Source of the DNA: a virus
Virus record (IMG/VR): IMGVR_UViG_3300045988_148900
Span: 1-64,000 of that record
Length of the DNA: 64,000 bases
Strand: one strand, 5' to 3'
Part shown: positions 5,878-58,780 of the stretch, piece by piece
Layout: the number at the start of each line of letters is the position of its first letter
How positions within the stretch are numbered: the stretch's first letter is position 1
Program-made: the position numbers and the translations under genes
The notes under the pieces: generated by a model
Databases searched by the model: none
What the model saw: the letters and a program-made list of their open reading frames with translations, nothing else
Told to the model about the DNA's origin: nothing

Positions 5878-6111
5878 TTAGCACAAAATTGTATAGTTGT
5901 TTCTTAAATATGAATTCCAAGAATCCCTCGCAGCATACCAAACAGCACAAGAACGAGTGATAGAATCACTAAAGATAAAAGCTCCACTAACCGCCATATC
6001 ATAAAGACAAGAATAAGCAGCAGGAGCATCCCATAAGTAACCAATATACTCTGACAAGGTTAAAGGACGTGAACGACTATACAGAAGATTCATACAAAAA
6101 TCAGAGTACAA
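5878..6111 (-). CDS. hypothetical protein, paralog of 6720-7007, with its canonical start apparently lost
   Basis: Homology to the paralog continues upstream to an ATA codon (6178-6180) at the position where the paralog has ATG. Confidence 0.45.
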   Translation of the reverse strand: MYSDFCMNLLYSRSRPLTLSEYIGYLWDAPAAYSCLYDMAVSGAFIFSDSITRSCAVWYAARDSWNSYLRNNYTILC

Positions 6112-6192
6112 GCCAACCTCCTTAAGCCACTCCCGAAAAACATGAGTATATTCCTGTAGGGAAGTTATTTTAATCTTTATGGCGCAACAGAA

Positions 6193-6705
6193 TTAAAACC
6201 TCCTACAATCGCTATAAGGATTACAATCCAAAGTATCCGCATCCACTGCAAGCCCACGCTCGATAAGACCACCCACGTCGAAACGCCAACGATAAAGAAG
6301 ATCAAAGCACCCCTTGGGCATACTCTCATTAGTACCAAAATAATGAGTTATTCGCCCCTGCGGCGTAAAAGTGTAAACCATCACAAAAGAATCTCGATCC
6401 ACAACAATCCAAGAATCTTCCGGAATATCCGGACTGCAATACAACGCAAGCTCCACTGCCGGAATGAAAGAATCCACCCGGTAATCAAAGTCACGAATAG
6501 GTTTACTCAGAAACGACATAGGGCGTAATATCGGACGAACATCCGACAGGGAAAAAGAACCTCCTCGTCGTACAAAACCACCAGTAAGCGGAAGATGACC
6601 AGACGAAAGCGGAACTAAAAAGTCTACCGTCTGATCCGGGAACTGAAAAGCCAAACCATAGGGAATATAGCCCCATAAATCCTGAATACTAACTACATTT
6701 GACAT
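6193..6705 (-). CDS. hypothetical protein, paralog of 4993-5586
   Basis: ORF track plus paralogy. Confidence 0.6.
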   Translation of the reverse strand: MSNVVSIQDLWGYIPYGLAFQFPDQTVDFLVPLSSGHLPLTGGFVRRGGSFSLSDVRPILRPMSFLSKPIRDFDYRVDSFIPAVELALYCSPDIPEDSWIVVDRDSFVMVYTFTPQGRITHYFGTNESMPKGCFDLLYRWRFDVGGLIERGLAVDADTLDCNPYSDCRRF

Positions 6706-6719
6706 AAATATAGCATATT

Positions 6720-7007
6720 TTAATTTACAATGGTGAAATTTCTATCCAAGTAAGCATCCCATGCTGCTGCGCAATCATACCAAACCTCTCCAGCACAATA
6801 TGGTGCCCTATGAAAAATAAACGATGACCAAAGACCCATCTTTTGAGCACGAGACTTGAATTGCCACAAGCCAACTACAAATTCAGATAGAGTCTTACCA
6901 TGCCACAATAACAAGTTCATACAGAAATCACCATACAAACCATTATCCTTGAGCCAAGCCCGAAGCACCTTAGTATAAAGGACGGCACTATCAATCACTA
7001 TACTCAT
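6720..7007 (-). CDS. hypothetical protein, paralog of 5878-6111
   Basis: Shares YGDFCMNLL and related segments with its paralog. It is the first gene after the promoter at 7054-7084. Confidence 0.6.
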   Translation of the reverse strand: MSIVIDSAVLYTKVLRAWLKDNGLYGDFCMNLLLWHGKTLSEFVVGLWQFKSRAQKMGLWSSFIFHRAPYCAGEVWYDCAAAWDAYLDRNFTIVN

Positions 7008-7053
7008 AGTAACAACTTAAATGTCTATTAGTTCTAAAATCAACTCTACATCA

Positions 7054-7084
7054 CAAAAGTAGTAAATTAAATGTATAATCCAAA
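7054..7084 (-). promoter_or_regulatory. Bacteroidota-type promoter (TTTG-N19-TACTTTTG)
   Basis: Minus strand reads TTTGGATTATACATTTAATTTACTACTTTTG. It lies about 45 nt upstream of the 7007 start. Confidence 0.55.
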
Positions 7085-7184
7085 ATAAATATAAAGAAAA
7101 AATAAAGACAACCTATCAGTCGTCTTTATTCATATACCCAAGCAGCCGCAGATTCCCATCTGTAACTACAAACATAAACGTAAC

Positions 7185-7463
7185 CTAACCCTTCTGACTG
7201 TCATCGTTACCGTCCTCAGAACCATGCTCCCGGTACCTACTCTCCTCATTCTCCATGTGGCAAACCAAATCGCCAAGCAATAAAGTAAGTAGACACCAGA
7301 AGCCAACGTAAGGAATAGCAACGACCTTCCAGTAACGCCACGGAACAGGTGCCTCCTCGTACCTATACATGCCTGAAAAGCATAACATGAGGCACACAAA
7401 AAAGACATACGACAAAACGTAATACAAAACAGTGGCCCAGAACAAAAAGATCAAAAATCCCAT
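7185..7463 (-). CDS. small membrane protein (92 aa)
   Basis: Two or three hydrophobic helices followed by an acidic C-terminus. Confidence 0.5.
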   Translation of the reverse strand: MGFLIFLFWATVLYYVLSYVFFVCLMLCFSGMYRYEEAPVPWRYWKVVAIPYVGFWCLLTLLLGDLVCHMENEESRYREHGSEDGNDDSQKG

Positions 7464-7497
7464 AAGCCCTCATCAATTATAGGTTCGACAGTCTCCT

Positions 7498-7659
7498 CTA
7501 CACAAACCAAAGCCCAGTCGGGAACAAAAGACCAAATAGACAAAATAAACCTCCTACTAAAGTAATAAACAAAATCGCTGACAAGACAACAACAAGGCAC
7601 GTCGTCCGAAGCCCAAGACATCGCAAAAAGCCAACATAAGCATCCCGAAAGTCGTCCAT
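7498..7659 (-). CDS. small membrane protein (53 aa), below the ORF-track size cutoff
   Basis: Hand translation gives MDDFRDAYVGFLRCLGLRTTCLVVVLSAILFITLVGGLFCLFGLLFPTGLWFV. Its ATG lies 2 nt after the upstream TAG. Confidence 0.45.
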   Translation of the reverse strand: MDDFRDAYVGFLRCLGLRTTCLVVVLSAILFITLVGGLFCLFGLLFPTGLWFV

Positions 7660-7661
7660 CG

Positions 7662-7859
7662 CTATAAAGTATTAACGTCCCCGGAACACAAACGCTTCCG
7701 CATGTCCTTCAAAGACAAATTGTGCTTCTGACCATCGAAGAAAGAAGCAACAAGCAAATCCTGATCCGGAATGATCTTGCAAACCAAAAAAGTGGTATCA
7801 AACTCTGTAGACCGATACGTCCTACCTACAACAAAAACAGGCTTAGCCTTCTTAACCAT
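7662..7859 (-). CDS. hypothetical protein (65 aa)
   Basis: ORF track. Confidence 0.5.
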   Translation of the reverse strand: MVKKAKPVFVVGRTYRSTEFDTTFLVCKIIPDQDLLVASFFDGQKHNLSLKDMRKRLCSGDVNTL

Positions 7860-7863
7860 AACA

Positions 7864-8085
7864 CTAACTGAAGCTACACAGAACAGAAACTATTGAACTT
7901 TCCTCGAAAGCAGCAACGTAAACAGAACCCAAGTCCTTCAAGAAATGGAAACCATCCCAGTATAGCCACAAGGTGCTCATGTCTGACATGAGACACAAGT
8001 AACCACCACAAGACGCTCCGCACCGACGGAACTGACCCACAGCAACCCAAGACCCATCTACCTCACTACCCGGACAATAACACAC
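7864..8085 (-). CDS. hypothetical protein; start uncertain (an internal ATG at 7986 is possible)
   Basis: ORF track only. Confidence 0.3.
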   Translation of the reverse strand: MCYCPGSEVDGSWVAVGQFRRCGASCGGYLCLMSDMSTLWLYWDGFHFLKDLGSVYVAAFEESSIVSVLCSFS

Positions 8086-8111
8086 GATTCAATAAAAATA
8101 ACTAACGACCT

Positions 8112-8147
8112 AAACGTAAGAAACGGCTCATGCCGAAAGCACAAGCC
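8112..8147 (-). terminator. putative intrinsic terminator after 8183-8875
   Basis: Minus strand reads GGCTTGTGC-TTTC-GGCATGAGCC, a 9-bp stem with two G:U pairs, followed by GTTTCTTACGTTT. Confidence 0.4.
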
Positions 8148-8182
8148 ATGACCTATAACCACCTATCAAGCATCAACACCCA

Positions 8183-8875
8183 TCACTTCGCATATAAGGA
8201 AAGAAGACCTGCAAAGCCCGCACGATCCAACTGAGACGAGATATTAGCAATATCGAAACCATGAGACGAAAAAGAAAGACCAACAACACCCAAAGGCTTC
8301 GTGCCCAAGAACAAGACCCGAAGGGCAATACAATGAACATCGTTAGACTTTAACTTAAAATAAAGACGCTCGTCGATGTCGCGAATACCATCAACACAGC
8401 CATAATAAGAACCTACACGAACAAGATGAAAAATAAAAGGATACTTGGCAAGATCAAAATCAGTATACTCATCACTCACGCTGTTAACACCATCCCCGGT
8501 AACCTCCATACGCAAATTACCAAATACAAAAGGAAGCTCCGTGGCCATGTTCTTGGTCCCGTTGTGAAACTCCAAAACCCAAGCACGCGACGCACCCGTC
8601 TTAGCCTGAAGCTGGGAGAGCAAACCTAAAACCTGAGAGTCTACCTGAATCCTCCGGGAAATAGCCTCCGAATGACGTGCCCGCTGAATGGCCTCAACCT
8701 TATCTAAAACAAAAGACGGATTCAAAACTGCAAGCAGAAGCAACAGCAGAAAAATACACTGAAGTATATTAAAGAATCCGTACTTATTCTTCAAGGACAA
8801 AAGCTGCTTCAACCAACCAATGGCCGGACTAACAGACTCTGAAGCCGAAGCAACACTCTTTTTATTATCAGACAT
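8183..8875 (-). CDS. membrane-anchored hypothetical protein (230 aa)
   Basis: N-terminal TM helix (FLLLLLLAVL). Preceded by the 14-mer motif 22 nt upstream. Confidence 0.6.
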   Translation of the reverse strand: MSDNKKSVASASESVSPAIGWLKQLLSLKNKYGFFNILQCIFLLLLLLAVLNPSFVLDKVEAIQRARHSEAISRRIQVDSQVLGLLSQLQAKTGASRAWVLEFHNGTKNMATELPFVFGNLRMEVTGDGVNSVSDEYTDFDLAKYPFIFHLVRVGSYYGCVDGIRDIDERLYFKLKSNDVHCIALRVLFLGTKPLGVVGLSFSSHGFDIANISSQLDRAGFAGLLSLYAK

Positions 8876-8897
8876 AAGACTAAAACTACTATTTTCC

Positions 8898-8911
8898 GGA
8901 TATATAATTGC
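8898..8911 (-). promoter_or_regulatory. conserved 14-mer GCAATTATATATCC (candidate late promoter)
   Basis: Exact copy, 22 nt upstream of the ATG at 8875. Confidence 0.6.
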
Positions 8912-8914
8912 AAG

Positions 8915-11680
8915 CTACCAAGTAACACCTCGCTTGGCCTTCTCCTGCTCAAGCCATGAGTCTACAAAATACCAATCTCCAGAATCAATGTACTCCTGTG
9001 GGGGCGTGAAATCCTTAGGCCACAGCTTCCCCGTCTTCTTGTCAACAGCATGGATGTCGAGCTCGTAACCCCACGTAAGACCCACACAAGGCTCCGTAAC
9101 CAAAGGAACCTCAAAATTAGATGGCCAAAAGTTCATGATACGCTGCAAAACACATACCGCCTTAGCAAGATACTGAATGCGAGACGCAATCTGAATCTCA
9201 TCATGAACTGTAACCACAAAACGTGTATTGGCTGCGAACTCCGGGTCCATATCTCGATAACGCATAAGACGAATTAAATCCCGACGAATCAAGTCGCCAC
9301 CCGTATTTTTATGAACAAAACCACATAATGGATAAACAGGCAACCCACTACACATACTTGGTGACATGATATTATGAGTCACACCCAAAGGCATAGCAAA
9401 GACAGCATGAGCCTTCTGCTTCCGACCACGACATAACTTAAAGACATAATCCGTAGACGACGAAGCCGCAAAGTCATAGACCAAATTCCAACCAAAAAGA
9501 TCGCAGACCGAACGAAGGGTCGCTGCCGTGACAAAAGACCGCGTATGGAAACGTTTGCCCCCAAGAAATGACTTTAACAGACCCCAATAGATACCCCAGT
9601 CATCAACAGCAATAGGACGACCCATGTGAGCCAACGATGCAAGCTGCTCTAAACTAAAATTACCCCGACTAAAAAGACCCTTCAGAAGAGAAAAACGAGG
9701 CCGCTTAAAAGGCTTGCCCATGCGAACCGGAATACGACCACAAGAGTCCAAGTCTATGACGACATCGTCTGTCCCATACTTGACGAACTTGTGACCCCTA
9801 TTGCAAACCACAAAATCACCCGTATTGAAAATAACAACATGAAGCTCCTCCTCGCCACGAAATGTAGGAACACCCATACGACGCACACCTGACAAGGGAT
9901 CGACAAAGTCAACGCGCTGACCCGCAAAGTCCTTCCACGGACGATAACTCTTACCATCCTGAGATGGTAAATAAATTGTGTTAATTAAAGAGCCCTGTAT
10001 TGTACTATTTTTGGCCACACGCTCCGCATAAGCACGCATCCCATTATCAGGAGAACTAAACCATCGAGCTAAGTAAATAGTACGACCAAAGTAAGTCCGA
10101 GAAAACCCAGTTCGCTTAGCTGTTCGAACAACCTCATCCTGCCAAGCCTTCAACCGAGGCATACCTTTGTCGTAATCTGAAATGAGTTGGACAGCAGCCT
10201 GACGAGAAATGTTCAAACGCTGAGCAATCAAAGAAGCTCCACCACCATACAACTTGCCAAAAGAAACAGCCTTTGACTTAGAACGAAACGAAGGATCGGT
10301 TACACCAAAACGCTTATTGGCTACATACAAGTGAACATCTAACTTATGCTTAATCGGATACAAAAAACCATCCTCACGGGCCATATTCCCAGCCAGATTT
10401 AACTCCTCACTCGCATAATCGGCTCCTAAAACAGCCCAGCCATCTTCACCTGCAGGAGCAGGGAGGAATGCACTACGCATACCAGCTTTCGTCTTGTACT
10501 TAATGGGATTACCCGATGCATCACAAATCGCACCATCAGCCTCCTCAGTAAGACAATAACCCAAAACCGGATGAGTATGAAGATAAGCTTTAATCTCAAT
10601 TTTTGGCAAGTTTTGGCCGTTTAAGGGCTTATAGTAATCATTACCCTTAGAACCAGAGCTACTCATACGACCCGTCAAGGCAACCGTTAGATTGTAATTA
10701 ATGCGAACAGGAGTGCCACGCCAACTACACATCTTAGAGACAAAAGACTTAATGTAAGTGGAAACCTCCGAGTACTCAAGAAGCAACTTTGCCAATGGAT
10801 GATCAATAGTCGCAAGCACATTCTTATCTACCTTCAAACCTCCCCTCTCGGTGCGAACCGTAAGCGTCACAAAACGACCCAAAGCCTCGGCAATCTGAGG
10901 CCCGCTGTCAACGTTGAAGGAATAACCTACAAGCTGATAAATCTGCTGACGCAAAGACTCCATCTGAGCATTCGACCTCCGAAGCTCTGCATCCAAAAAG
11001 TCATAGTCCAAGTAAATCTCCTGCTGAGTCATCCGACGAACAGCCTCGCCACACTCGTTGTCCAACGAGTAAATCTTCCGAATGTTGGGATAATCGCTCC
11101 ATATCTTCAGACCAAGAAGAGCAGTTATGAGAGGATCACCCCCAGCATAAATAAAACTAACCTCCGGATCAGTAGAACCAAAGTCATTATTCTCAGCCTC
11201 ATTCTCCTCATAAGAAATAGTCTGGAACTTCAAGAAACGCTTCGCCCAGTCCTTCAACTTCGGCATACGGTCATTGAAAACCTCATGAGCCATGAACTGG
11301 ATGTCATGCGTCTTGCCTACAAATGGTGCCTTAAAGCCATCCTTCTCAAGCATCGAAAAGTCAAAGGACCTATTCCACCATGCAGTCATGTAGTTATCAA
11401 CAACAAACTGAACGAACTCCATAACCTCCTTAATGGGCAAGTTGCGAGAATAACCATAATGACGAAGCGGAATGTAATAACCTACATAATCCGCCTTGCT
11501 ATAGGTCCTACCTGTGGATAAGCAAATTCCAACAACATAATCGCTTACAAACGAGAGCCCTGTAGTTTCAGAGTCACAGCCGACCAAAATATTAGCATAA
11601 AGATTTGACCTTATAAAAGCCAAATCCTCAAGCGACTGAACGAGAGCAACCTTATAACCGTTAAAGGAACCCCAAAGCAT
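8915..11680 (-). CDS. family A DNA polymerase with 3'-5' exonuclease domain, interrupted by an intein-like insert
   Basis: Exo I VGCDSETTGL; motif A GADYASEELNLAG; motif B KAVSFGKLYGG; motif C VVTVHDEIQI. The QGTAAD-equivalent motif is split. Confidence 0.9.
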   Translation of the reverse strand: MLWGSFNGYKVALVQSLEDLAFIRSNLYANILVGCDSETTGLSFVSDYVVGICLSTGRTYSKADYVGYYIPLRHYGYSRNLPIKEVMEFVQFVVDNYMTAWWNRSFDFSMLEKDGFKAPFVGKTHDIQFMAHEVFNDRMPKLKDWAKRFLKFQTISYEENEAENNDFGSTDPEVSFIYAGGDPLITALLGLKIWSDYPNIRKIYSLDNECGEAVRRMTQQEIYLDYDFLDAELRRSNAQMESLRQQIYQLVGYSFNVDSGPQIAEALGRFVTLTVRTERGGLKVDKNVLATIDHPLAKLLLEYSEVSTYIKSFVSKMCSWRGTPVRINYNLTVALTGRMSSSGSKGNDYYKPLNGQNLPKIEIKAYLHTHPVLGYCLTEEADGAICDASGNPIKYKTKAGMRSAFLPAPAGEDGWAVLGADYASEELNLAGNMAREDGFLYPIKHKLDVHLYVANKRFGVTDPSFRSKSKAVSFGKLYGGGASLIAQRLNISRQAAVQLISDYDKGMPRLKAWQDEVVRTAKRTGFSRTYFGRTIYLARWFSSPDNGMRAYAERVAKNSTIQGSLINTIYLPSQDGKSYRPWKDFAGQRVDFVDPLSGVRRMGVPTFRGEEELHVVIFNTGDFVVCNRGHKFVKYGTDDVVIDLDSCGRIPVRMGKPFKRPRFSLLKGLFSRGNFSLEQLASLAHMGRPIAVDDWGIYWGLLKSFLGGKRFHTRSFVTAATLRSVCDLFGWNLVYDFAASSSTDYVFKLCRGRKQKAHAVFAMPLGVTHNIMSPSMCSGLPVYPLCGFVHKNTGGDLIRRDLIRLMRYRDMDPEFAANTRFVVTVHDEIQIASRIQYLAKAVCVLQRIMNFWPSNFEVPLVTEPCVGLTWGYELDIHAVDKKTGKLWPKDFTPPQEYIDSGDWYFVDSWLEQEKAKRGVTW
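9305..9991 (-). mobile_element. putative intein (229 codons, Ser564-Asn792 of the polymerase)
   Basis: The insert splits NSTIQG / TGGDLIRR. It starts SLINTIYL, contains CNRGH (block-B-like) and ends FVHKN, followed by Thr. Confidence 0.6.
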
Positions 11681-11685
11681 AACTA

Positions 11686-11844
11686 CTACCCCCGCTTCTT
11701 CTGATACGGAATCACCTCGCGAACAACACTCTTAGAAACAAGAGAAACCTTAAAAGGACGTGTGACAACAACGTAGCACATTTCAAGACTAAAAAAGATA
11801 TACACATCCTCAGTATGACCATCCACATGAACCAATGTTTTCAT
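11686..11844 (-). CDS. small hypothetical protein (52 aa), below the ORF-track size cutoff
   Basis: Hand translation gives MKTLVHVDGHTEDVYIFF...YQKKRG. Its TAG stop lies 5 nt before the polymerase ATG. Confidence 0.4.
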   Translation of the reverse strand: MKTLVHVDGHTEDVYIFFSLEMCYVVVTRPFKVSLVSKSVVREVIPYQKKRG

Positions 11845-11867
11845 TTAAAACTCGCTAATTTATACAA

Positions 11868-13106
11868 TTAACAAAATGAATTAATCGCAACTTTATCCGC
11901 ACATACACGGACTGGACAGCTCACATGCCCTCTATTGACTAAACATCGCAACGCAACGTCGTCGCCAAATACCTTCCGCAGAATGTTAACACTCCCGTTA
12001 ACGTCTGCATTTATTAACATCCCACTACCCGAACGAAACAAGCCTCGACGAATACGCTTGCCAACATAAGCGTCATGATGACATACAGCCTCGCGGTCTA
12101 AACTACTACAAACGGACGTGTGCGACTCATTGACACCAATGAACCCTATGCCCAAAACATTAGACTTATAACGAATCATCTCAACAAAACGACCATGTGG
12201 CAAACATACGAAATTCTGATTCGTAACGGAACCCAAATTAATACAATCCTTCCAACCCGGATTGTAACCCACAACTATCCTGTTAATACCATGATCCCTA
12301 CAATAATTTACTATTAAACGACTCGCCTTATGCAAGTAATCGTCAACCTTATTATTACGACGCAACGTAAGCCTAGCAAGACGGCGGGAATGCTTCTAAC
12401 CATGCTGCTTCTGTAAGCTACTCTGTAACTCACCACGCCGCTTATTATAATACTGATTTATAGACTTCAATGAACGACCATTGACTATAAAAGAAAAACC
12501 GTTGCTGTCATAGCAAGTCGCCAAGTTGTCAAGGCCCAAGTCGATAGATAAGTAACGACCGCTATCCGGTAACTCCACAACATCCGGAACCTTGTAAACA
12601 ACCTCGATGACGTAATAACCATGACGCGGTATAAAACGAACCTCATGGATACCTCCCGTAACACGCGTACGTAAAGGCGCAAAACCCTCCTTCTTGGGGA
12701 AGTGTAACATCCCGTCAACCAACCGAACCATCTGCGACGAGTAGACAAAGGAGAAGCGACCATTCGTCTTATCCTTGTAGTGCGGAAAACGAGGACATCC
12801 TGTGAACTTCTTATTATCGCGCTTCCATGCCTTGATCGACGAAAAGTAACCCTTCAAGTTCTGATCCAAACGGTGAAGAATATTATTCGACGACCATGCA
12901 CTCAACGCACGGTAATCTACATTGTTAGCCGACAAGAATTGCTTATTCAACTCAATCCAACGAATCCACTTGCCGCTACGCAAGAACTCCTGCTTAATGA
13001 CAAAAATACCCGCATTATACAAGTTCTTAGATAACCAGCATACATGGTCTATACGACCATAACGATGGTCGCCCCGTCGTACTATATGACGCTCTACTTG
13101 AACCAT
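11868..13106 (-). pseudogene. tnpB: IS200/IS605-family TnpB (OrfB) interrupted by one in-frame TAG at 12396-12398
   Basis: ORFs 12396-13106 and 11868-12365 are in the same frame. The sequence reads ...LQKQHG*KHSRRLARLTLRRNNK..., with SIDLGLDN, NESHTS and NADVNGSVNI motifs. Confidence 0.8.
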
Positions 13107-20578: not shown

Positions 20579-20641
20579 GACTAATCCTTCGAAAAAAGCT
20601 TGCCGTAAAGGCAAAACATATCCATCACTTTAGACTTAATG

Positions 20642-20715
20642 CGGTGTGTAGGGGACTCGAACCCCTGACCCCGTGCGTGACAGGCACGTATTCTAACCTG
20701 CTGAACTAACACACC
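20642..20715 (-). tRNA. tRNA-Asp (GTC)
   Basis: A cloverleaf folds by hand: acceptor GGTGTGT/ACACACC, anticodon loop CTGTCAC, T arm AGGGG-TTCGAGT-CCCCT. Confidence 0.85.
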
Positions 20716-20740
20716 TGATAAACCCATAAACGTAGCAAGG

Positions 20741-20953
20741 CTACTTAGAACGCTTACGCTCCTTGCGACTCAAACGCCGACTACCAAACTCCTTCTTCTT
20801 AGGACGAACATGACCTACTGGACTCGTTTCGTTACCTCGACCCGTACATGTAGAACCATTGGAAATCCTCCGTGACGGAACACCATACAAATCAGAGTCC
20901 GACGCACACAGCGAACTCAAGGAAAGATATAAAGGAAGCAAACTCCTACCCAT
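20741..20953 (-). CDS. possible small basic protein
   Basis: ORF track only. The sequence is low-complexity and S/R/K-rich. Confidence 0.3.
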   Translation of the reverse strand: MGRSLLPLYLSLSSLCASDSDLYGVPSRRISNGSTCTGRGNETSPVGHVRPKKKEFGSRRLSRKERKRSK

Positions 20954-20964
20954 GACCACCTCGA

Positions 20965-21381
20965 TTAAAAACTACCCTCAAAACCATGACCTAACTCCAG
21001 AGACTCATCCACTACAAACTCAAAGTCTCCCGGAATGCCAAACTCCTCAACAATGAGAACCCGGAGAATATCAGCATAAGGCTCATACCAACTACCAACG
21101 TTCACTATGAACCTACCATCAGCAAAAGTTACTCGACCACGAGGAACATCCTTGAAATCCTGAGTATAAACAGAATTATTCCGATTCCGAGGGCTAAAGC
21201 GAGCCTTCTCCCACCAAAACTCATGCGTCTTAGTATAAAGCAACAGACCATTGATAACTCTATCTGGATCGAAGTCCTTCGTGTGAACCTCGAGCAAACT
21301 CTCAGAATCCTCATCAAACCAAAAGATACCAATCTTCGGTACCACAGATGTATCAGCGTCAAAAACTTGCATATCCTCCAT
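20965..21381 (-). CDS. hypothetical protein (138 aa)
   Basis: ORF track. It is the first gene after the promoter at 21395-21426. Confidence 0.6.
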   Translation of the reverse strand: MEDMQVFDADTSVVPKIGIFWFDEDSESLLEVHTKDFDPDRVINGLLLYTKTHEFWWEKARFSPRNRNNSVYTQDFKDVPRGRVTFADGRFIVNVGSWYEPYADILRVLIVEEFGIPGDFEFVVDESLELGHGFEGSF

Positions 21382-21394
21382 ATAACCAATGACG

Positions 21395-21426
21395 CAAAAA
21401 TAATATAATTAATTGTATAATCCAAA
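21395..21426 (-). promoter_or_regulatory. Bacteroidota-type promoter (TTTG-N20-TATTTTTG)
   Basis: Minus strand reads TTTGGATTATACAATTAATTATATTATTTTTG. Confidence 0.55.
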
Positions 21427-21429
21427 CGG

Positions 21430-21461
21430 AAAAAAAGAGACCATGATGCCTACATGGTCTC
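21430..21461 (-). terminator. intrinsic terminator closing the tRNA island
   Basis: Perfect 9-bp stem GAGACCATG/CATGGTCTC with a 7-nt loop, followed by T7 on the minus strand. Confidence 0.75.
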
Positions 21462-21485
21462 CTGTCAGCTCCTGTCAGCTCCTGA
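21461..21485. repeat. short tandem repeat (cctgtcagct x2.5)
   Basis: Read directly from the sequence. Confidence 0.6.
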
Positions 21486-21712
21486 TCTCTGAAGCCCGAT
21501 GATATCCATATATCGACTGGAACATCTTTAGCCGTTGATATTAACCTAAATCAATCAAAAATAGGAGCATACAACATGAGCATGCCAGTCGTCCTGCGTT
21601 TTTATAACCTCCATGCAGGGAATGGGCGGAGGGGCATAGCATTAAGACTCCAGCAGACTATAAGCAGTAAACGCAGAAAAATAAAACCCACTGAAACCTT
21701 AGAACAAAAAAG

Positions 21713-21797
21713 CGGAGAGTGAGAGATTCGAACTCCCGGTACCTTTCGGTACGCCTGATTAGTAGGCAGGTGCTTTAGACCACTCAGCCAACTCTCC
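21713..21797 (-). tRNA. type II tRNA-Ser with unusual anticodon ACT (A34)
   Basis: Paralogous to the tRNA-Ser at 22493-22577 (same acceptor GGAGAGT and a long variable arm). Anticodon loop is CTACTAA, with a C31:T39 mismatch. Confidence 0.65.
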
Positions 21798-22245
21798 AAA
21801 CCTTAAAAAAGAGGGGATGGGATACCCACTTATACTCTACCCCTCATAGAGTCTGTCGCCTCCGCTCCGGCACTCGCCTATGGAAAAAGTCCGTGTTGCT
21901 GCCTCGGAAACAATTTGTTTGGCCTCACGACCCAGTTGGCTGGTGTCTGGACTTATCCGTTAAGGAGCCAAACTCAGATCCCCCACAGCCGGGGATATGG
22001 TAAGTTGTAGGAGAGTTGGACGCTACTCATCTCCGTAGCATAATCCCATTACGAAAGCCGCTACAGCATTCTCACAATTAAACTACTACAACATGGGCAC
22101 CGGAGAGCCCGAAGACTCTAACGAGAACACCAACAAGCAATTCGTGCGCACTCTTTGACTCAAATGTCCCCTCTACCGGCATGTATCTCAAAGAACAAAG
22201 ATATAACTACCACTCTATGAAACCATATATCAATGACTTTATAAG
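21798..22245 (-). ncRNA. ORF-free block, candidate structured RNA (family unknown)
   Basis: No ORF of 60 aa or more on either strand. Local hairpins are present. Strand assumed from context. Confidence 0.3.
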
Positions 22246-22455
22246 TCAAAACACATCTTCTTTCTGCAACTCGCGCCAAAATTCTAAATCACAAGGAACG
22301 TGAGTATATCTCGGAAGACACTGAGTTCTAAAATCAGTATGATTATATACTTTGACCTCTAAAGGATTCGACGCTTTTTCATTAAGCACCTCATACTGTT
22401 TACACTCAAAAATAAACTTCTTTCCCGGCTTTATATTTGCAAGCTCAATATACAT
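22246..22455 (-). CDS. hypothetical protein (69 aa) embedded in the tRNA island
   Basis: ORF track. ATG start and ordinary amino-acid composition. Confidence 0.5.
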   Translation of the reverse strand: MYIELANIKPGKKFIFECKQYEVLNEKASNPLEVKVYNHTDFRTQCLPRYTHVPCDLEFWRELQKEDVF

Positions 22456-22492
22456 ATTAAAACATTTAATAAAAAGTTTAAGTACTTATCGG

Positions 22493-22577
22493 CGGAGAGT
22501 GAGGGATTCGAACCCCCGGTACGTTGCCGTACAACAGTTTTCAAGACTGTCACCATAAACCACTCGGACAACTCTCC
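22493..22577 (-). tRNA. tRNA-Ser (TGA), type II
   Basis: Anticodon arm ACAGT-CTTGAAA-ACTGT, long variable arm, T arm CGGGGGTTCGAATCCCTC. Confidence 0.85.
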
Positions 22578-22633
22578 ATACATGTTATTACTTCTTGACA
22601 TACTCCCATGCGTAAACACACGGAATTCATGAC

Positions 22634-22840
22634 TCAAACATGACTGCCGCAAACCGCGGACTTACTATCACTCATCATAGCGTCCATGCCCGAACGCACA
22701 AGATTCAGCGCCGCATTCAAATCCCTATCATGGACCATACCACATGCGGGGCACGCCCAAGACCTATCCGTCAAATGCAACACCTTATTAACGTATCCAC
22801 AACCGCGAAGAGCAAAAGAATAAATAAAGTCCGTAGTCAT
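22634..22840 (-). pseudogene. tnpB: C-terminal remnant of a TnpB (zinc finger plus last RuvC motif only)
   Basis: WACPACGMVHDRDLNAALNL aligns with WACPQCGTIHDRDLTAATNI of the intact TnpB at 61780-62958. The N-terminal roughly 320 aa are absent. Confidence 0.6.
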
Positions 22841-22860
22841 CCCATGGCTAAAGCCATGGG
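22841..22860. repeat. perfect 8-bp palindromic hairpin CCCATGGC-TAAA-GCCATGGG
   Basis: Read directly. It abuts the first codon of the tnpB remnant. Confidence 0.7.
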
Positions 22861-22879
22861 ATTTCTACGAATAGTTTCG

Positions 22880-23320
22880 TAAACTCCAACAGGTGTGAGC
22901 GCACATTGAGGAATTTTCCGCCTGTCTTCAACATATTACTTCAATAACACCATATTTATCAGAACCTTGAGCTGAGGGATGGACTTGAACCATCCTAACC
23001 AACGCTACTCGTACTATTCCCTAAGGTCAACATTTCACGCCGCGCTTTGCCTGATAAGCTACTCAGCTTGTGCCTACACCTAAGTGTACGAGGGCAACGT
23101 CTCGGCAAGTATTTTGAGTGTGACTGCTCCACTACGGGTGAACGGTTCCTGGTTTACGAGTGGCTAAGGCTTGCGCACCGTTCAAGTGTCTCGTTTTAAT
23201 CGAACTGCTTTGTTTTACTGCTTAACATACGCCCCTGCGGGGTTCTAATACACAGTGGGAGAGAATTACGTACTTCTAAAGCCAGACCCTCATCGCACCT
23301 GCTCGATTAATAGCGGGAGA
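22880..23320 (-). ncRNA. ORF-free block, candidate structured RNA, containing a 99-nt tRNA-like module (22970-23068)
   Basis: No ORF of 60 aa or more on either strand. Composition is balanced (23041-23100: A13 C17 G15 T15). The T arm GGATGG-TTCAAGT-CCATCC is followed by CTCAGCT, which pairs with AGCTGAG. Confidence 0.3.
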
Positions 23321-23393
<73 letters not shown>

Positions 23394-23421
23394 AACACTA
23401 AATTTTAGTGTTGGCGAGGGC

Positions 23422-23527
23422 AGGGGGATTCGAACCGCATCCGTCACCCAAGCTCAAGGCTACCCTTTACAGGACCTTATAGACTTACTGGGGCACTACC
23501 AACTGTGCTACACCCTCATATTATTAT
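23422..23527 (-). tRNA. aberrant 106-nt tRNA-like element with encoded CCA and an extended, rod-like anticodon arm
   Basis: Acceptor GAGGGTG/TGCCCTC, a normal D arm GCAC-AGTTGGTA-GTGC, the T-loop sequence GGTTCGAATCC with a weak stem, and about 46 nt where a 17-nt anticodon arm is expected. Confidence 0.4.
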
Positions 23528-24115
23528 AAAGAACCTTGATATATTACAACGTTTCTCAGAAAGAACCCAAACCTCCAGCCAATGCCTTGAAATAGTCTTT
23601 CTATATAAAAAAGCCTCCGCTCCTATTTGCCTGTTCCCCGTTTTCCGTGACTTAGGAAACACCATGACGACTAAGACGACAAGATGTATTTTACGCGATC
23701 CTGTGAACGCCACCGAGGCGAGCTGCCGAGGCTCTGCCAAATATACGTAAAAAAAGTAGAAACTCTTATAGTCAGAGCAGTAGGTGAACAGATAAACCCA
23801 CCAATAAAGTAATTACTCCATAAAGCGGTCGTAAACCCTGAGCGAAGCGGATGCTAAACCCAGCAAGGACTAACCATATGTCTGTTACTACAACCGCACC
23901 AAAAGAACCTCTACTAAGCTAATTGCCGTGCTACTCCCGGACGCTCACTCCGGATATTCAGTCATAATAACGGTTCTATGGGCAGGATAAGAACCTCTGA
24001 CAACGCACCCAGTACCTACTCACTCTAAATTCAGTACTGCAACACATAAAACCAACCTCCTGCCATCTCAAAGGGTTGGACGCCCACTCGCATAGCAAGC
24101 CTGACGTGGAACGCG
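23528..24115 (-). ncRNA. ORF-poor block, candidate large structured RNA (family unknown)
   Basis: 588 nt between two tRNA genes. Only two mutually overlapping marginal ORFs occur. G+C is higher and less skewed than in coding DNA. Confidence 0.3.
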
Positions 24116-24199
24116 TACCGCCTCTGGGACTCGAACCCAGACGCCATCTCTGACACTACATTTTGAGTGTAGCCCGTCTACCAATTCCGACAAGGCGGC
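24116..24199 (-). tRNA. tRNA-Leu (CAA), type II
   Basis: Anticodon arm CTACA-CTCAAAA-TGTAG, T arm CTGGG-TTCGAGT-CCCAG, acceptor GCCGCCT/AGGCGGT. Confidence 0.85.
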
Positions 24200-24239
24200 A
24201 AATATAAAACAACATCTAAAGAACCAAATATCTAAAACA

Positions 24240-24476
24240 CTACTCACTATCCGGAGGCAGGAACTGAGCATAGAAAGATATCTTATCTGATAAAACCTTC
24301 CGAGACGCAACCGGAAACTTACCCGCTTTATTATCGCTAATGTATTCCAGAAGCGTATGCATCGCTTCATAATCTCGAAAAATCTCCATAGCATTGCAAG
24401 CCCCATGAAAATGGCTAATACTCGCCGTCTCTAAATAAGAAGTAAGCAAACTTACACAATCTCCGAAATTTCCCAT
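24240..24476 (-). CDS. hypothetical protein (about 78 aa)
   Basis: The ATG at 24474-24476 was chosen because the track's GTG start (24500) lies within 5 nt of the -7 box. Confidence 0.5.
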   Translation of the reverse strand: MGNFGDCVSLLTSYLETASISHFHGACNAMEIFRDYEAMHTLLEYISDNKAGKFPVASRKVLSDKISFYAQFLPPDSE

Positions 24477-24504
24477 CACAAACAGTAATCGTTTAACCAC
24501 AAGG

Positions 24505-24536
24505 CAAAGATAATAACATTAATTTTATTATCCAAA
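24505..24536 (-). promoter_or_regulatory. Bacteroidota-type promoter (TTTG-N20-TATCTTTG)
   Basis: Minus strand reads TTTGGATAATAAAATTAATGTTATTATCTTTG. Confidence 0.55.
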
Positions 24537-24559
24537 TAATTGTGACAAAAAAGCGATTT

Positions 24560-24919
24560 TTATTTCAGCAATCTAAAAGCCTCCTGTAACCCATCCGCCA
24601 AAGCGTCATCATAACAATCGAAAAAACGAACTCCAGAATAGCTTAAAAGACTACCATGATTGAAAAGCTCCCAATAAAAATAACCAGACGCATACCGACG
24701 ATCCATAGTAACGGCTACAAAAAGACCTGTAGTCACAAACACCATATGACGCAAAGAGTCCTGATAAGGAAGAGGGTAAACCGCAACCAAATCTGAATCC
24801 GGAAGCTTCTCGGAACCATAAGCAGAGTCACTCGGAATATCAGACGAAGAAACCTTCGACACCTCCAGAATGCCTAAAGCAACTGCTTCCTTAGCAACAT
24901 CAAGTGAAATACGATTCAT
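24560..24919 (-). CDS. hypothetical protein (119 aa)
   Basis: ORF track. It lies downstream of tRNA-Leu(TAA) in the same apparent transcription unit. Confidence 0.6.
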   Translation of the reverse strand: MNRISLDVAKEAVALGILEVSKVSSSDIPSDSAYGSEKLPDSDLVAVYPLPYQDSLRHMVFVTTGLFVAVTMDRRYASGYFYWELFNHGSLLSYSGVRFFDCYDDALADGLQEAFRLLK

Positions 24920-24940
24920 AACATGTTAGTTACAACACTG

Positions 24941-25026
24941 TACTCGGAGCGGGAATCGAACCCGCACGACCATTACTGATCACAGGATTTTAAGTCCGGC
25001 GCGGCTACCAATTACGCCATCCGAGC
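24941..25026 (-). tRNA. tRNA-Leu (TAA), type II
   Basis: Anticodon loop CTTAAAA, long variable arm, T arm GCGGG-TTCGATT-CCCGC. One mismatch in the anticodon stem. Confidence 0.8.
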
Positions 25027-55871: not shown

Positions 55872-57161
55872 CTACTCACAAGAAGCGTATCTAAAAGTAT
55901 AACCTTTTACTGACTGTATCTTACCTGTACAACAGCATACAATAGAAGTGCGATTAATTCCCAATACCGATCCAGCCTCTGCAGAAGACTTAAACTGTGA
56001 AGTAACTCCATCTACAAGACGAGTGGAAATAACCGACTTCCGTCTCTTCGCGCCACAGTCAAAATAATCTGCAGGCAACTCTGACAAAGAAGGAGCTTTA
56101 GCATCATCAGGATACCTGAAAATATACCCCTTACCCTGCTTATAACGACCCAAACAACAACCCGTAATATGAGAAGAACGAACTCCGGTTGCCTTACTTG
56201 CCTCAGACAAAGACGAAAAAACAACAGAGACTCCTGAAGCAATATTTATCGCCTCTACTGATCGCACGCGTGCAGCACAAGCTACCGTGCGCAAAACGTT
56301 GGAATTATTAGCATACGGATCATAACACAATCGCCGGGCAACCTCGTCTAAATCCATAGAACGCAAAAAAATAAACCCGTACACCTTCGGCGGATTACCA
56401 TCCACAGCATCCAAAATGCGAGAAACACGATTCTGAATATCCAACTCCTTAACCAAAACATGTACATTAGGCCAAGACTTAACGAAAGAGCCATCCTTGG
56501 CTGAAAACCCAAATATTTCAAAATCTGAGTCCTTCCGCTTAGGACGCTTATAAACCTTATTCTGAACATCAGAAAGAACCAACAAAGCATCATCAGGACT
56601 ATCTTTATACAGAAATAGATAACCACATACAGATAAAAGCTTCCGCTGACAGCATAACGTAATAGACGCAGAAGCAACACCCAACTTCTCGGATGCTGCC
56701 TTAGCTCCATAAAACTCTCCAACAAACTCTCCAGTAGAAACCCGATAGCAAACCACAGGACGACTCTTGCGACGACGCGTCTCCCCCGACGCACGACGAT
56801 TATGAAGCATTGCTATAACATGATCAGGCTGCTTAAATCCGCTACAACCATCACCTCCCTTAGTGGAATTATAACCATGAAGATATGTATCATAAAAGGC
56901 AATCCAATAAATCTCTCGCTCATTTAACCCTTTACTACGAGCTTCTATGGAGTCATAAGATAACCTCTCTAAAATCTCATAATCAAAAGACTCGGGGCCA
57001 TACTTCCGACGCGCATTATCAATAGCACTCCTACCACTCGTATAAGTGGTACCTATTGACAAAAACTGACTATGACGTTCTTCCCCATCACCTATAGCCT
57101 GACCAACATAAGACCTCCCAGAAACCTTACAGGTGTACTTATAAATTATACCCTCAAACAT
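55872..57161 (-). CDS. free-standing GIY-YIG homing endonuclease with four C-terminal repeated DNA-binding modules
   Basis: GIIYKYTCKVSGRSYVGQA...REIYWIAFYDTYLHGYNSTKGGDG, then four modules ending GYLFLY / (diverged) / GYIFRY / GYTFRY. Confidence 0.85.
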   Translation of the reverse strand: MFEGIIYKYTCKVSGRSYVGQAIGDGEERHSQFLSIGTTYTSGRSAIDNARRKYGPESFDYEILERLSYDSIEARSKGLNEREIYWIAFYDTYLHGYNSTKGGDGCSGFKQPDHVIAMLHNRRASGETRRRKSRPVVCYRVSTGEFVGEFYGAKAASEKLGVASASITLCCQRKLLSVCGYLFLYKDSPDDALLVLSDVQNKVYKRPKRKDSDFEIFGFSAKDGSFVKSWPNVHVLVKELDIQNRVSRILDAVDGNPPKVYGFIFLRSMDLDEVARRLCYDPYANNSNVLRTVACAARVRSVEAINIASGVSVVFSSLSEASKATGVRSSHITGCCLGRYKQGKGYIFRYPDDAKAPSLSELPADYFDCGAKRRKSVISTRLVDGVTSQFKSSAEAGSVLGINRTSIVCCCTGKIQSVKGYTFRYASCE

Positions 57162-57274: not shown

Positions 57275-58780
57275 CTATACGTAACGAACGGTCAATTTCG
57301 AAATGCAATTGGCCTTGTGCAGCTTATAAGCTTCCATGCTTACCATCGACTGGCGAACGGTAACACCAATAGCTACCTGATCCGTCGGAACCAAAGGTAA
57401 GAAGATACCCATGTACATGACGGCGTCGTACCATTCAGGACCTCGATAGGTCATCATGACAGCATCGTCAGCCCTCCAAGGATCGTAATAGACCTTAAAC
57501 GAACCAAACTGACCGATCTCACGAGCTGCTGACCACTGAGCCTGATAGCGCACAGGCTGGAACCACGTGTTGGGCAGTGACTCAAGGAACGACTTCATGT
57601 TCTTGCCTACAACCAGACGGTTGCCCTCGATACGGCCTGACGCCAGCTCGATCTGCGTAGCATACTGCTTCAGCTGCTGCATCACATTAGCTGCCTGTAC
57701 GTCAAGAGAGATCGACGTCGACTGGGGAATGTTGATCGTTCCGGTAGCTCCGGTAGCGAACGTCCACATGGTGTCGAGAATGTAACGAACCTGATACTGA
57801 TACATGAGGTTCAGTACGCGCTTCGTGTTCTCGGTGCGGATGTCGGTGCCGAACTGCGACTTCTTGAGAGCCTCAGCAAAGATGGTCCACTCCATGCCGA
57901 TAGCACGCGGAATGGCACGCATCTCGACCTTCTCGACCTGCTCCTTGACCTTCGGAATGTTCTCCTGAATGGCGTAGTCGAGGTTCCAAACGTAGTTGGC
58001 GTTGATGCACGGAGCCGTCAGAGCACCACCTGCGTCTGCAGCAGCGATGAAGATACCACCCGAGCTAATCAGCATGTACGACGCCGGAGCCTGAGTGGGT
58101 GCCGAAGCCGGAACAAGGTTGATCTTGTCGCCTATAACGCCTGCGGGAATCATCGAAGCCTTCAGCTCCTGACCGTCGTAGATGTCCAGCTTGAACTTGT
58201 CGATGTAGTCGCCCGAAACGTTCAAAGCGAAGTAAGCTGTAACAGCCGTGATGTTGTTAGAAGCGTCAACCTCCAGCTGATCCGACGGAATGGTCTCGCC
58301 GAGAATCTCACCAGTCGGGTAGTAACCATTGATCTGACGCATACCCGTAGCGGTCTCAACGGCCTGACCTACAATCGTGGGAGCCTTGTTCGTGCCAGTA
58401 ACGAGTTTCGAGAAGAACAGGAAGGCAAGGTCCTGCGACATGTCCTGAACCGAAATCAGGTCCTTCAGTGGGAAGTCGGGATACCAAGCAGCAACGATGG
58501 GGAATACCTCCGGAACGTAGGGACCGAAGTCACTCATCATGTTGACCTGCTGACCACGAGTGGCGGGAGCGTCAATCGAGTCGCAAACCTTCTCGCACTC
58601 ACGCTTGAAGGTGTTCAGAATACCTGCCTGAATGCCACGATCTTTAACCGAAAGGGCCATGCCATGCTTCTTGGCAAAGGCATCATACCGATTCATGTAT
58701 TCGGTAATACGCTTGCTCTTACGAGTGAGGGCGATACTGTCAGTAACGCGACTCATCTCCTGTGAAATAATATCAGTCAT
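57275..58780 (-). CDS. major capsid protein (T4 gp23-like)
   Basis: Segments ...MRAIPRAIGMEWTIFAEALKKSQFGTD...ILDTM and ...YYDPW...MTYRGPEWYDAVMYMGIFLPLVP parallel gp23. It follows the gp21-like protease. Confidence 0.8.
   Translation of the reverse strand: MTDIISQEMSRVTDSIALTRKSKRITEYMNRYDAFAKKHGMALSVKDRGIQAGILNTFKRECEKVCDSIDAPATRGQQVNMMSDFGPYVPEVFPIVAAWYPDFPLKDLISVQDMSQDLAFLFFSKLVTGTNKAPTIVGQAVETATGMRQINGYYPTGEILGETIPSDQLEVDASNNITAVTAYFALNVSGDYIDKFKLDIYDGQELKASMIPAGVIGDKINLVPASAPTQAPASYMLISSGGIFIAAADAGGALTAPCINANYVWNLDYAIQENIPKVKEQVEKVEMRAIPRAIGMEWTIFAEALKKSQFGTDIRTENTKRVLNLMYQYQVRYILDTMWTFATGATGTINIPQSTSISLDVQAANVMQQLKQYATQIELASGRIEGNRLVVGKNMKSFLESLPNTWFQPVRYQAQWSAAREIGQFGSFKVYYDPWRADDAVMMTYRGPEWYDAVMYMGIFLPLVPTDQVAIGVTVRQSMVSMEAYKLHKANCISKLTVRYV

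Follow-up and report, generated by a model that had tools for sequence, protein, structure and literature searches.

The window analysed here comprises positions 1 to 64,000 of the IMG/VR virus record IMGVR_UViG_3300045988_148900, and encodes on its minus strand a family A DNA polymerase (polA) whose 921-aa product carries 229 extra residues within a conserved motif. Comparative evidence makes it likely that these residues (564–792 of the precursor) are a functional intein, inserted at QG|T(G/A)(G/A)D and splicing by a standard, class 1-like mechanism with atypical assisting residues. A predicted structure and sequence profiles identify the insert as a HINT domain homologous to bona fide inteins, formed by its residues 1–91 and 196–229. 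The features of the gene, all on the minus strand, are as follows.

8915..11680 (−): polA, 921-aa precursor with 3'-5' exonuclease and family A polymerase, TAG stop at 8915–8917 (list of open reading frames, Pfam)
9992..11680 (−): N-extein, residues 1–563, ending in ...AERVAKNSTIQG; Pfam and tblastn matches end at or just past residue 564
9305..9991 (−): putative intein, residues 564–792 (229 aa), HINT fold with an inserted central domain (AlphaFold2, Foldseek, hhalign, substitution rates)
9719..9991 (−): N-terminal HINT part, intein residues 1–91, with block A SLINTIYL and block B GDFVVCNRGHKF (hhalign; beta-rich model)
9989..9991 (−): Ser564 (TCT), predicted to be the first nucleophile as residue 1 of the intein; most relatives have Cys (TGT) here (sequence)
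9791..9793 (−): His630 (intein His67), block B His B:10, with Asn627 at B:7 where Thr is usual (conservation and intein alignment)
9407..9718 (−): central inserted domain, intein residues 92–195, including WGIYWGLLKSFLGG and LRSVCDLFGWNLVY (secondary structure of the model)
9305..9406 (−): C-terminal HINT part, intein residues 196–229, with blocks F and G, ...NIMSPSMCSGLPVYPLCGFVHKN (hhalign, weak match of hidden Markov models, HMM)
9305..9310 (−): Lys791-Asn792 (AAA AAT), Asn792 being the terminal Asn predicted to cyclise (conservation)
9302..9304 (−): Thr793 (ACG), C-extein residue +1 and predicted second nucleophile, the T of the polymerase motif QGT(A/G)(A/G)D (sequence, junctions)
8918..9304 (−): C-extein, residues 793–921 (TGGDLIRR...VHDE...), second DNA_pol_A stretch, which joins the N-extein after deletion of the insert

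Insertion site and predicted fold

A preliminary description of this DNA, made from its letters alone, had placed the insert, from SLINTIYL to GFVHKN, at residues 564–792 (229 aa; window 9305–9991, minus strand). This placement proved exact, and the motifs quoted with it, namely FVVCNRGHKF, WGIYWGLLKSFLGG and the penultimate Lys ahead of Asn-Thr, were all found. The insert is preceded by AERVAKNSTIQG and followed by TGGDLIRRDLIRLM. Pfam matched the 921-aa product to DNA_pol_A (E-value 3.6e-53) and, more weakly, to the 3'-5' exonuclease family DNA_pol_A_exo1. In the intact protein the DNA_pol_A match is broken at residue 564 (residues 234–564 on profile positions 9–304) into two stretches, at 181 bits, while deletion of the insert in silico produced a single stretch (residues 234–642 on profile positions 9–380 of 381) at 202.5 bits. 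The resulting junction aligned without gaps with a solved large-fragment DNA polymerase I (6mu4, ...NTPIQG|SAADIIKK), and relatives devoid of the insert read IQGTGGDIIR (P0089), IQGTGGDLIR (P0092), IQGAGGDII (P0086) and IQGLGADIC (P0093). The single Pfam stretch, the 6mu4 alignment and the insert-less relatives thus agree with the earlier claim that removing Ser564–Asn792 restores IQG-TGGDLI, and the comparison with intein-less polymerases, which had been put forward as a check, gave back QG-TGGD. As expected of an intein, in-frame removal of residues 564–792 leaves contiguous conserved host sequence, and their exact interruption of the polymerase motif is confirmed, far beyond what chance would give.

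When the insert-bearing polymerase was compared by tblastn with 1137 phage polymerases, the alignments, among the matches listed, stopped at residue 564 or within about 15 residues past it. A search of 5.8 billion proteins retrieved 921-aa proteins with 98–99% identity on contigs of up to 130–145 kb, and many independent contigs, recovered from different samples, carry this uninterrupted open reading frame (ORF) of 921 aa. Within the window the insert has no second copy.

Structure prediction, proposed in the preliminary description as a way to look for a HINT fold, did yield one. The AlphaFold2 model of the insert, obtained from an alignment of 40 diverse homologues, had a pLDDT of 95.3 and a pTM of 0.91, and the best 50 matches listed by Foldseek against PDB were all inteins or intein-like HINT domains. 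They included the Ssp DnaB mini-intein (E-value 6.7e-4, probability 1.0, TM-score 0.62 on the target), Mxe GyrA, VMA inteins, Npu DnaB, Prp8, DnaE, RecA, PI-SceI, a class 3 DnaB intein and BIL2; among the matches listed, TM-scores on mini-intein targets ranged from 0.55 to 0.68. Against the predicted viral structures of BFVD 100 matches were found at E≤1e-3; those listed by name (terminases, ribonucleotide reductases, helicases and the like) belong to protein types in which inteins occur. A BFVD protein of 1250 aa, matched at a TM-score of 0.77, is equal in length to the polymerase relative P0137 and probably bears the same element as the window polymerase.

At the sequence level the only significant link to inteins came from a profile-profile comparison (hhalign) of the 40-member profile with PF14890-positive mini-inteins cut from polymerases of the same clade. 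The N-terminal part aligned with a probability of 92.6% and an E-value of 4.5e-7, starting at residue 1 of both, with Ser/Cys1 on Cys1, insert residues 1–79 and beyond on mini-intein residues 1–72, and His67 on the block B His; the insert pattern GDFxVCNxxH / GDFxVCxxxHKF lies opposite the mini-intein block B, GxxIxATxxH. The C-terminal 50 columns aligned end-to-end, weakly (E-value 0.0085), with KN on HN, Ser210 on Asp F:4 and GFVHKN on NGIIVHN, and a weak HMM match to a neighbouring, class-3-like intein of the related locus L006 gave the same register. A first hhalign run with shallow alignments had been weak (E-value 0.011), and significance was reached only with deeper profiles. Because the registers match, the blocks assigned earlier were right: SLINTIYL as block A with Ser as residue 1, FVVCNRGHKF as block B with Asn in place of Thr, and GFVHKN, followed by Thr, as the C-terminal end.

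Curated profiles, on the contrary, missed the family altogether. The suggested HMM search with Pfam Intein_splicing and Hint did not detect the insert, and Pfam at E≤10 returned nothing intein-related. When all 40 aligned members were searched with Pfam and NCBIfam, no intein model (Intein_splicing, Hint, Hom_end_hint, or the intein N- and C-terminal models) matched any of them at E≤1. No match was found for the insert family in PHROGs, for the insert in a PDB sequence-profile search, or by tblastn of the insert against 50,697 phage genomes. Only structure and profile-profile comparison recognised it.

Conservation of the predicted splicing residues and the central domain

A profile search of 1.84 billion cluster representatives gave 62 clusters (at 50% identity), whose long members are mostly metagenomic phage family A polymerases. 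Junctions could be extracted from about 40 long proteins. All of these are polymerases with the element at one site, flanked by QG (or by an upstream intein ending in ...HN) and by (T/S)(G/A)(G/A)D, and the 229-aa element was found in every member of the polymerase clade. The 40 embedded copies aligned are as low as about 20% identical to that of the window, and despite this diversity the residues required for splicing are preserved. Residue 1, expected in block A to be Cys, Ser or Thr, is Cys in 36 of the 40 and Ser in the other four (Ser564 in the window). The block B His (B:10) and the terminal Asn (G:7, Asn229 of the insert) are invariant (40/40 each), and at the embedded junctions examined residue +1 is Thr (Thr793 in the window), with a single Ser, in P0153, as the exception.

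The assisting positions are instead mostly non-canonical. The penultimate residue (G:6) is Lys in 36 copies, Arg in two and His in two, so that the Lys noted earlier in place of His in the window (Lys791) is the rule in the family, while two clusters end in a canonical His-Asn|Thr. At B:7, where Thr is expected, Asp (19), Asn (10, including Asn627 of the window) and Ser (9) outnumber Thr (2), and at F:4 Ser (34, including Ser773), Thr (4) or Cys (2) replaces Asp. By a gap-free count from the C terminus, the window has Pro, and many relatives have Gln, where His F:13 would be expected. B:7, F:4, F:13 and G:6 are assisting, less conserved intein positions (PMC4031507); Thr B:7 assists and is not essential (PMC2807308, PMC4031507), natural inteins without the penultimate His can splice, and F:4 varies (PMC4031507). 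The non-canonical helpers lower our confidence in splicing but do not refute it.

About 15 clusters consist of free-standing phage proteins of 190–237 aa that are homologous over the whole intein (P0154, P0155, P0164–P0166, P0168, P0170 and P0173–P0179; loci L001–L005) and are covered by no database family. The core residues G58, D59, F60, A156, R160, G167, N169, R190, G224 and F225 are kept in them. In the 15 short members aligned, the block B His is found in six, the terminal Asn in one and Ser F:4 in one; the start Met lies mostly at or beside position 1, where Cys or Ser is conserved in none. The positions that are invariant in the embedded copies are those let go by copies that need not splice. 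Arg45-Gly46 of the insert (PTFRG; window 9854–9859) are likewise kept in 37–38 of the 40 embedded copies and not in the free-standing homologues; their conservation pattern is that of the splice-junction residues, yet they fall on no recognised intein block position.

The ratio of nonsynonymous to synonymous substitution rates (dN/dS), calculated against the L006 allele, was 0.12 for the insert and 0.15 for the N-extein; within the insert it reached 0.19 in the central domain but was 0.02 in the C-terminal HINT part. Insert and polymerase are under the same purifying selection, the junction residues strongly so.

Between the two HINT halves, insert residues 92–195 form a domain of about 100 aa at the site where inteins carry a homing endonuclease. 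In the AlphaFold2 model its helices span residues 101–106, 114–122, 132–143 and 153–165 and its strands 147–150, 169–172 and 182–187, with a core of helix-strand-helix-strand-strand. Modelled alone, the domain had a pLDDT of 77.9 and no significant PDB match (best E-value 0.28), the comparison with the LAGLIDADG enzyme I-DmoI giving a TM-score of 0.41 with a match probability of about 0.3. No recognisable LAGLIDADG or HNH nuclease was matched by Pfam in the insert, and family alignments contain no conserved Asp or Glu after the LAGLIDADG-like helix and no conserved acidic catalytic residue. The modelled core is compatible with a stripped-down LAGLIDADG half-domain in which WGIYWGLLKSFLGG would be the LAGLIDADG-like helix. 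Four of its residues (R160, G167, N169 and R190) are kept whether a copy is embedded or free-standing, and the retention of the domain in free-standing proteins suggests a role other than cutting DNA. A GIY-YIG identity was also considered, as one member matched the Pfam GIY_YIG_domain (E-value 0.0054) and the family has a GYN motif; it was rejected because such an E-value is expected by chance over 40 scans and because the order of the motifs does not fit the GIY-YIG fold.

These data do not bear out the possibility, raised in the preliminary description, of a degenerate mini-intein. A mini-intein has the splicing domain only, in about 130–165 aa, and here, in 229 aa, the two HINT halves are separated by about 100 aa of structured insert; a degenerate element is contradicted by the dN/dS of 0.12 and by junction residues conserved in all 40 diverse copies. 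The element is neither a mini-intein nor decaying.

Proposed splicing and its alternatives

In the proposed mechanism, the 921-aa precursor, once translated, would undergo an N-O acyl shift in which Ser564, assisted by His630 of block B, attacks the carbonyl of Gly563. Transesterification would then move the N-extein to Thr793, cyclisation of Asn792 would release the 229-aa intein, and an O-N shift would leave a Gly563-Thr793 peptide bond in a 692-aa polymerase of about 79 kDa reading ...NSTIQG-TGGDLIRR..., with ...NSTIQGTGGDLIR as the predicted ligated-junction peptide. Since Asn627, Ser773, Pro and Lys791 stand where Thr B:7, Asp F:4, His F:13 and His G:6 are usual, the catalysis must differ in its details. 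The element is probably no longer mobile alone, and would be inherited vertically with the polymerase of the clade.

Among the closest parallels are class 1 inteins with an inserted domain, such as PI-SceI (Sce VMA) and Mxe GyrA. With these the element shares a HINT fold split at the endonuclease position, a nucleophile at residue 1, the block B His, the terminal Asn, a Cys/Ser/Thr residue at +1 and a conserved site in a replication enzyme. It differs from them in having no recognisable LAGLIDADG or HNH module, in being missed by curated profiles, in being fixed in its clade rather than sporadic, and in its Lys for His G:6, Ser for Asp F:4 and Asn/Asp/Ser for Thr B:7. The Ssp DnaE intein likewise keeps the terminal Asn with a G:6 residue other than His (PMC4031507, its references 74 and 87), so that in inteins of this type other residues must assist Asn cyclisation; unlike it, the family described here, known from sequence, has a conserved Lys at G:6 and is non-canonical also at F:4 and F:13. 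The PF14890 mini-inteins of the same clade (as the 137-aa FNGQN|CLRG...IIVHN|CPK of P0020) share the host family and a homologous N-terminal splicing region with the element, but are canonical (Cys1, TxxH, VYD, HN|C), recognised by Pfam and sporadic, whereas the window element is longer, atypical and fixed.

Class 3 inteins are defined by a first residue that is not a nucleophile, together with a Cys that is obligatory at F:4 as part of a Trp/Cys/Thr triplet (PMC2807308). The class 3 intein of mycobacteriophage Bethlehem DnaB (PMC2807308) resembles the element in its association with phages and in a hydroxyl or thiol at F:4, but the family begins with a nucleophile (Cys or Ser) and its F:4 residue is mostly Ser, so that it is not class 3. 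Bacterial intein-like (BIL) domains sit in variable regions of non-essential proteins. The window element shares the HINT fold with them, BIL2 being among its structural matches, and differs from them in its site within a core polymerase motif and in its conserved Thr at +1, the absence of a +1 nucleophile being what defines BIL domains (PMC4031507).

The intein interpretation of the preliminary description is thus largely right, being supported by the HINT fold, the block alignment and the restored host motif. Several points nonetheless weigh against splicing, which we infer from comparative evidence. The four assisting positions B:7 (Asn), F:4 (Ser), F:13 (Pro) and G:6 (Lys) depart from the canonical set, and the window allele is itself derived at position 1 (Ser for Cys) and at position 3 (Ile, where 36 of the 40 copies have Pro). 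The conservation of Thr +1 weighs little because Thr is also the native polymerase residue, and the failure of every Pfam, NCBIfam and PHROG model to match any of the 40 copies, together with the empty PDB sequence search, has to be set on the same side. Moreover, the element is fixed across a deep clade instead of being sporadic, always at a single site of a single gene, and a domesticated domain retained in the protein would look alike. Carriage of the segment by related phages as a conserved insertion had been named beforehand as an argument against splicing. It is literally true, as the whole clade carries it, yet splicing survives the objection: what is conserved is precisely the set of splicing residues, which the free-standing homologues lack.

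The same set of observations bears on the rival that the insert is of intein descent but no longer splices, so that the mature polymerase keeps all 921 aa and uses the extra domain in an accessory role, such as binding DNA or a partner by means of the conserved central domain. Fixation in all members of a deep clade at one constant site, the lack of the canonical helpers (G:6 Lys, F:4 Ser, B:7 Asn) and purifying selection over the whole insert would all be accounted for, and the conservation of the central domain, common to free-standing proteins unable to splice, suggests a function of its own. In the HINT fold the N and C termini are adjacent, so that such an insertion could be tolerated as a loop. 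A retained domain, however, could dispense with Cys/Ser1, the His of block B and the terminal Asn, yet all three are kept throughout the 40 embedded copies and were lost by the free-standing homologues; nor would it need the canonical His-Asn|Thr ending of two clusters. The insertion site also directly follows the Gln (Q849 in E. coli, Q754 in Taq) that in Pol I structures makes the minor-groove contact at the primer terminus, and a retained 26-kDa domain would there probably obstruct DNA binding and be hard to accommodate. We regard domestication as unlikely, though it is the main rival to splicing.

Far less probable, indeed highly improbable, is that the insert has nothing to do with inteins, being an unrelated domain or else a product of misassembly or mistranslation, and that its ends look like splice junctions by coincidence. 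The lack of any Pfam, NCBIfam, PHROG or PDB sequence match would fit such an origin. It is already contradicted by the high-confidence HINT fold, with inteins or HINT domains as all 50 listed PDB matches, by the profile-profile alignment, which places it on true inteins in the right register, by the recurrence of the uninterrupted 921-aa ORF on independent contigs from different samples, and by purifying selection at the codon level.

A functional intein thus remains our favoured reading. A more elaborate version of it, to which we give only low credence, would set the family apart as a mechanistic sub-class of its own (conserved Lys G:6, Ser/Thr/Cys F:4 and Asp/Asn/Ser B:7 for His, Asp and Thr); its conserved non-nuclease central domain, present also in free-standing phage proteins with a HINT-like core, would have its own function, for instance DNA binding or conditional control of the timing of polymerase maturation, and in relatives the element would splice in an obligate order with a class-3-like intein fused directly to its Cys1.

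Relatives, genomic surroundings and implications

The latter arrangement was found in many relatives, where an intein of about 435 aa and LAGLIDADG type lies directly upstream of the element, with zero extein residues between the two (...IQG|PAHKDTLVLT...CYCLSLEDDSHCYDTDGLISHN|CLPNTLY...); in P0018 it is encoded at L006 4690–5991. It starts with Pro, Asn, Gly or Asp and has Cys at F:4 without exception, hallmarks shared with class 3 inteins (PMC2807308), from which it differs in that the Trp and Thr of the triplet are absent. The +1 nucleophile of this upstream intein is Cys1 of the element studied here. All proteins with the upstream intein have Cys at that position, and close relatives without it, the window included, have Ser. 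Between the window and L006 the 35 codons upstream of the site are identical in DNA sequence, and seven nucleotides differ in the first nine codons downstream (window 9965–9991), a pattern that would be expected of homing-site divergence or co-conversion.

Judging from these sequences, the polymerase of the clade is a hot spot for inteins. In the search of 5.8 billion proteins the relatives' products measured 1058, 1290, 1355–1368, 1427 and 1497 aa. Canonical inteins were read at at least five other sites (the YAGGDP region, FNGQN|C, DY|C of motif A, CDVP|C and NF|C), Pfam recognising mini-inteins and LAGLIDADG inteins at several of the relatives' other sites, and up to four inteins were counted in one protein (P0127, 1545 aa). 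That recognised inteins occur elsewhere in these polymerases also favours the intein reading of the window element. The intein-rich relatives read were P0017, P0020, P0031, P0074, P0091, P0121, P0127 and others.

In a number of relatives polA is apparently fractured, with N-halves in P0076, P0081 and P0085 and C-halves in P0070, P0071, P0090 and P0122. One product ends in the N-part of an intein (...DY|CIHPDTLV...) and the other starts with a C-part (MGIVGSNIKS...GIICHN|CSEE...), which suggests, on the reading of these termini, a split intein at motif A. The idea that a free-standing homologue of the element splits polA was rejected because none sits between polymerase halves. The free-standing genes adjoin genes for a Dam methylase, a BACON-domain protein, or holin, AntA and RecA, and are not in polA. 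A single-protein scan of viral contigs for their context returned nothing, and exact look-ups gave mostly short contigs.

The window is a segment of a phage genome in which nearly all long ORFs lie on the minus strand, with GC and AT skews that are strong and constant over the profiled stretch (6000–12000). A DnaB-like helicase, a further helicase and a major head protein are encoded in it. The features placed around polA and elsewhere in the window are the following.

11868–13106 (−): gene for a TnpB / IS605 OrfB-like protein (Cas12f1-like TNB domain), directly upstream of polA, with one in-frame TAG at 12396–12398
20641–25026 (−): six tRNA genes spaced by about 0.8–1 kb (Asp-GTC, Ser-ACT, Ser-TGA, Met-CAT, Leu-CAA and Leu-TAA)
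55872–57161 (−): homing-endonuclease-like gene (429 aa) with PHROG GIY-YIG/HNH matches, immediately downstream of the major head protein gene
57275–58780 (−): major head protein gene

In the relative L006 no TnpB gene is present between the large upstream gene and polA, and the copy in the window is probably a recent insertion, now a pseudogene. Its in-frame TAG raised the question of stop-codon reassignment, which was considered unlikely because TAG, the commonest stop, ends 27 of the 45 minus-strand ORFs of at least 150 aa, and because the six tRNAs include no suppressor. Rfam, at its gathering threshold, gave no group I intron. Several large proteins of the window (1224, 912, 793, 682 and 608 aa) had no PHROG match, the 1224-aa one having no Pfam match either. 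No close relative was found among deposited phage genomes, and megablast of window positions 1–25000 matched only tRNA-sized pieces. The intein load of the clade recalls that of the crAss-like Zeta group (PMC7886860), a likeness only and not an assignment.

Inteins in replication enzymes are already well known. What is new here is an intein family with an unusual, conserved active-site set and an inserted domain, lying outside the curated profiles. As Pfam, NCBIfam and PHROGs miss it, it has probably been passed over in intein surveys of gut phages, and phage intein censuses therefore undercount, and the annotated lengths and domain maps of these polymerases are off by 229 residues. With its Ser1 and Thr+1, an oxygen-nucleophile intein of 229 aa may be of interest to protein engineers. 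With the conserved Lys/Ser/Asn-type set one could test, in a natural system, which share of the canonical catalytic machinery is really required for splicing, and the free-standing homologues offer a rare view of HINT domains passing between embedded and independent lives.

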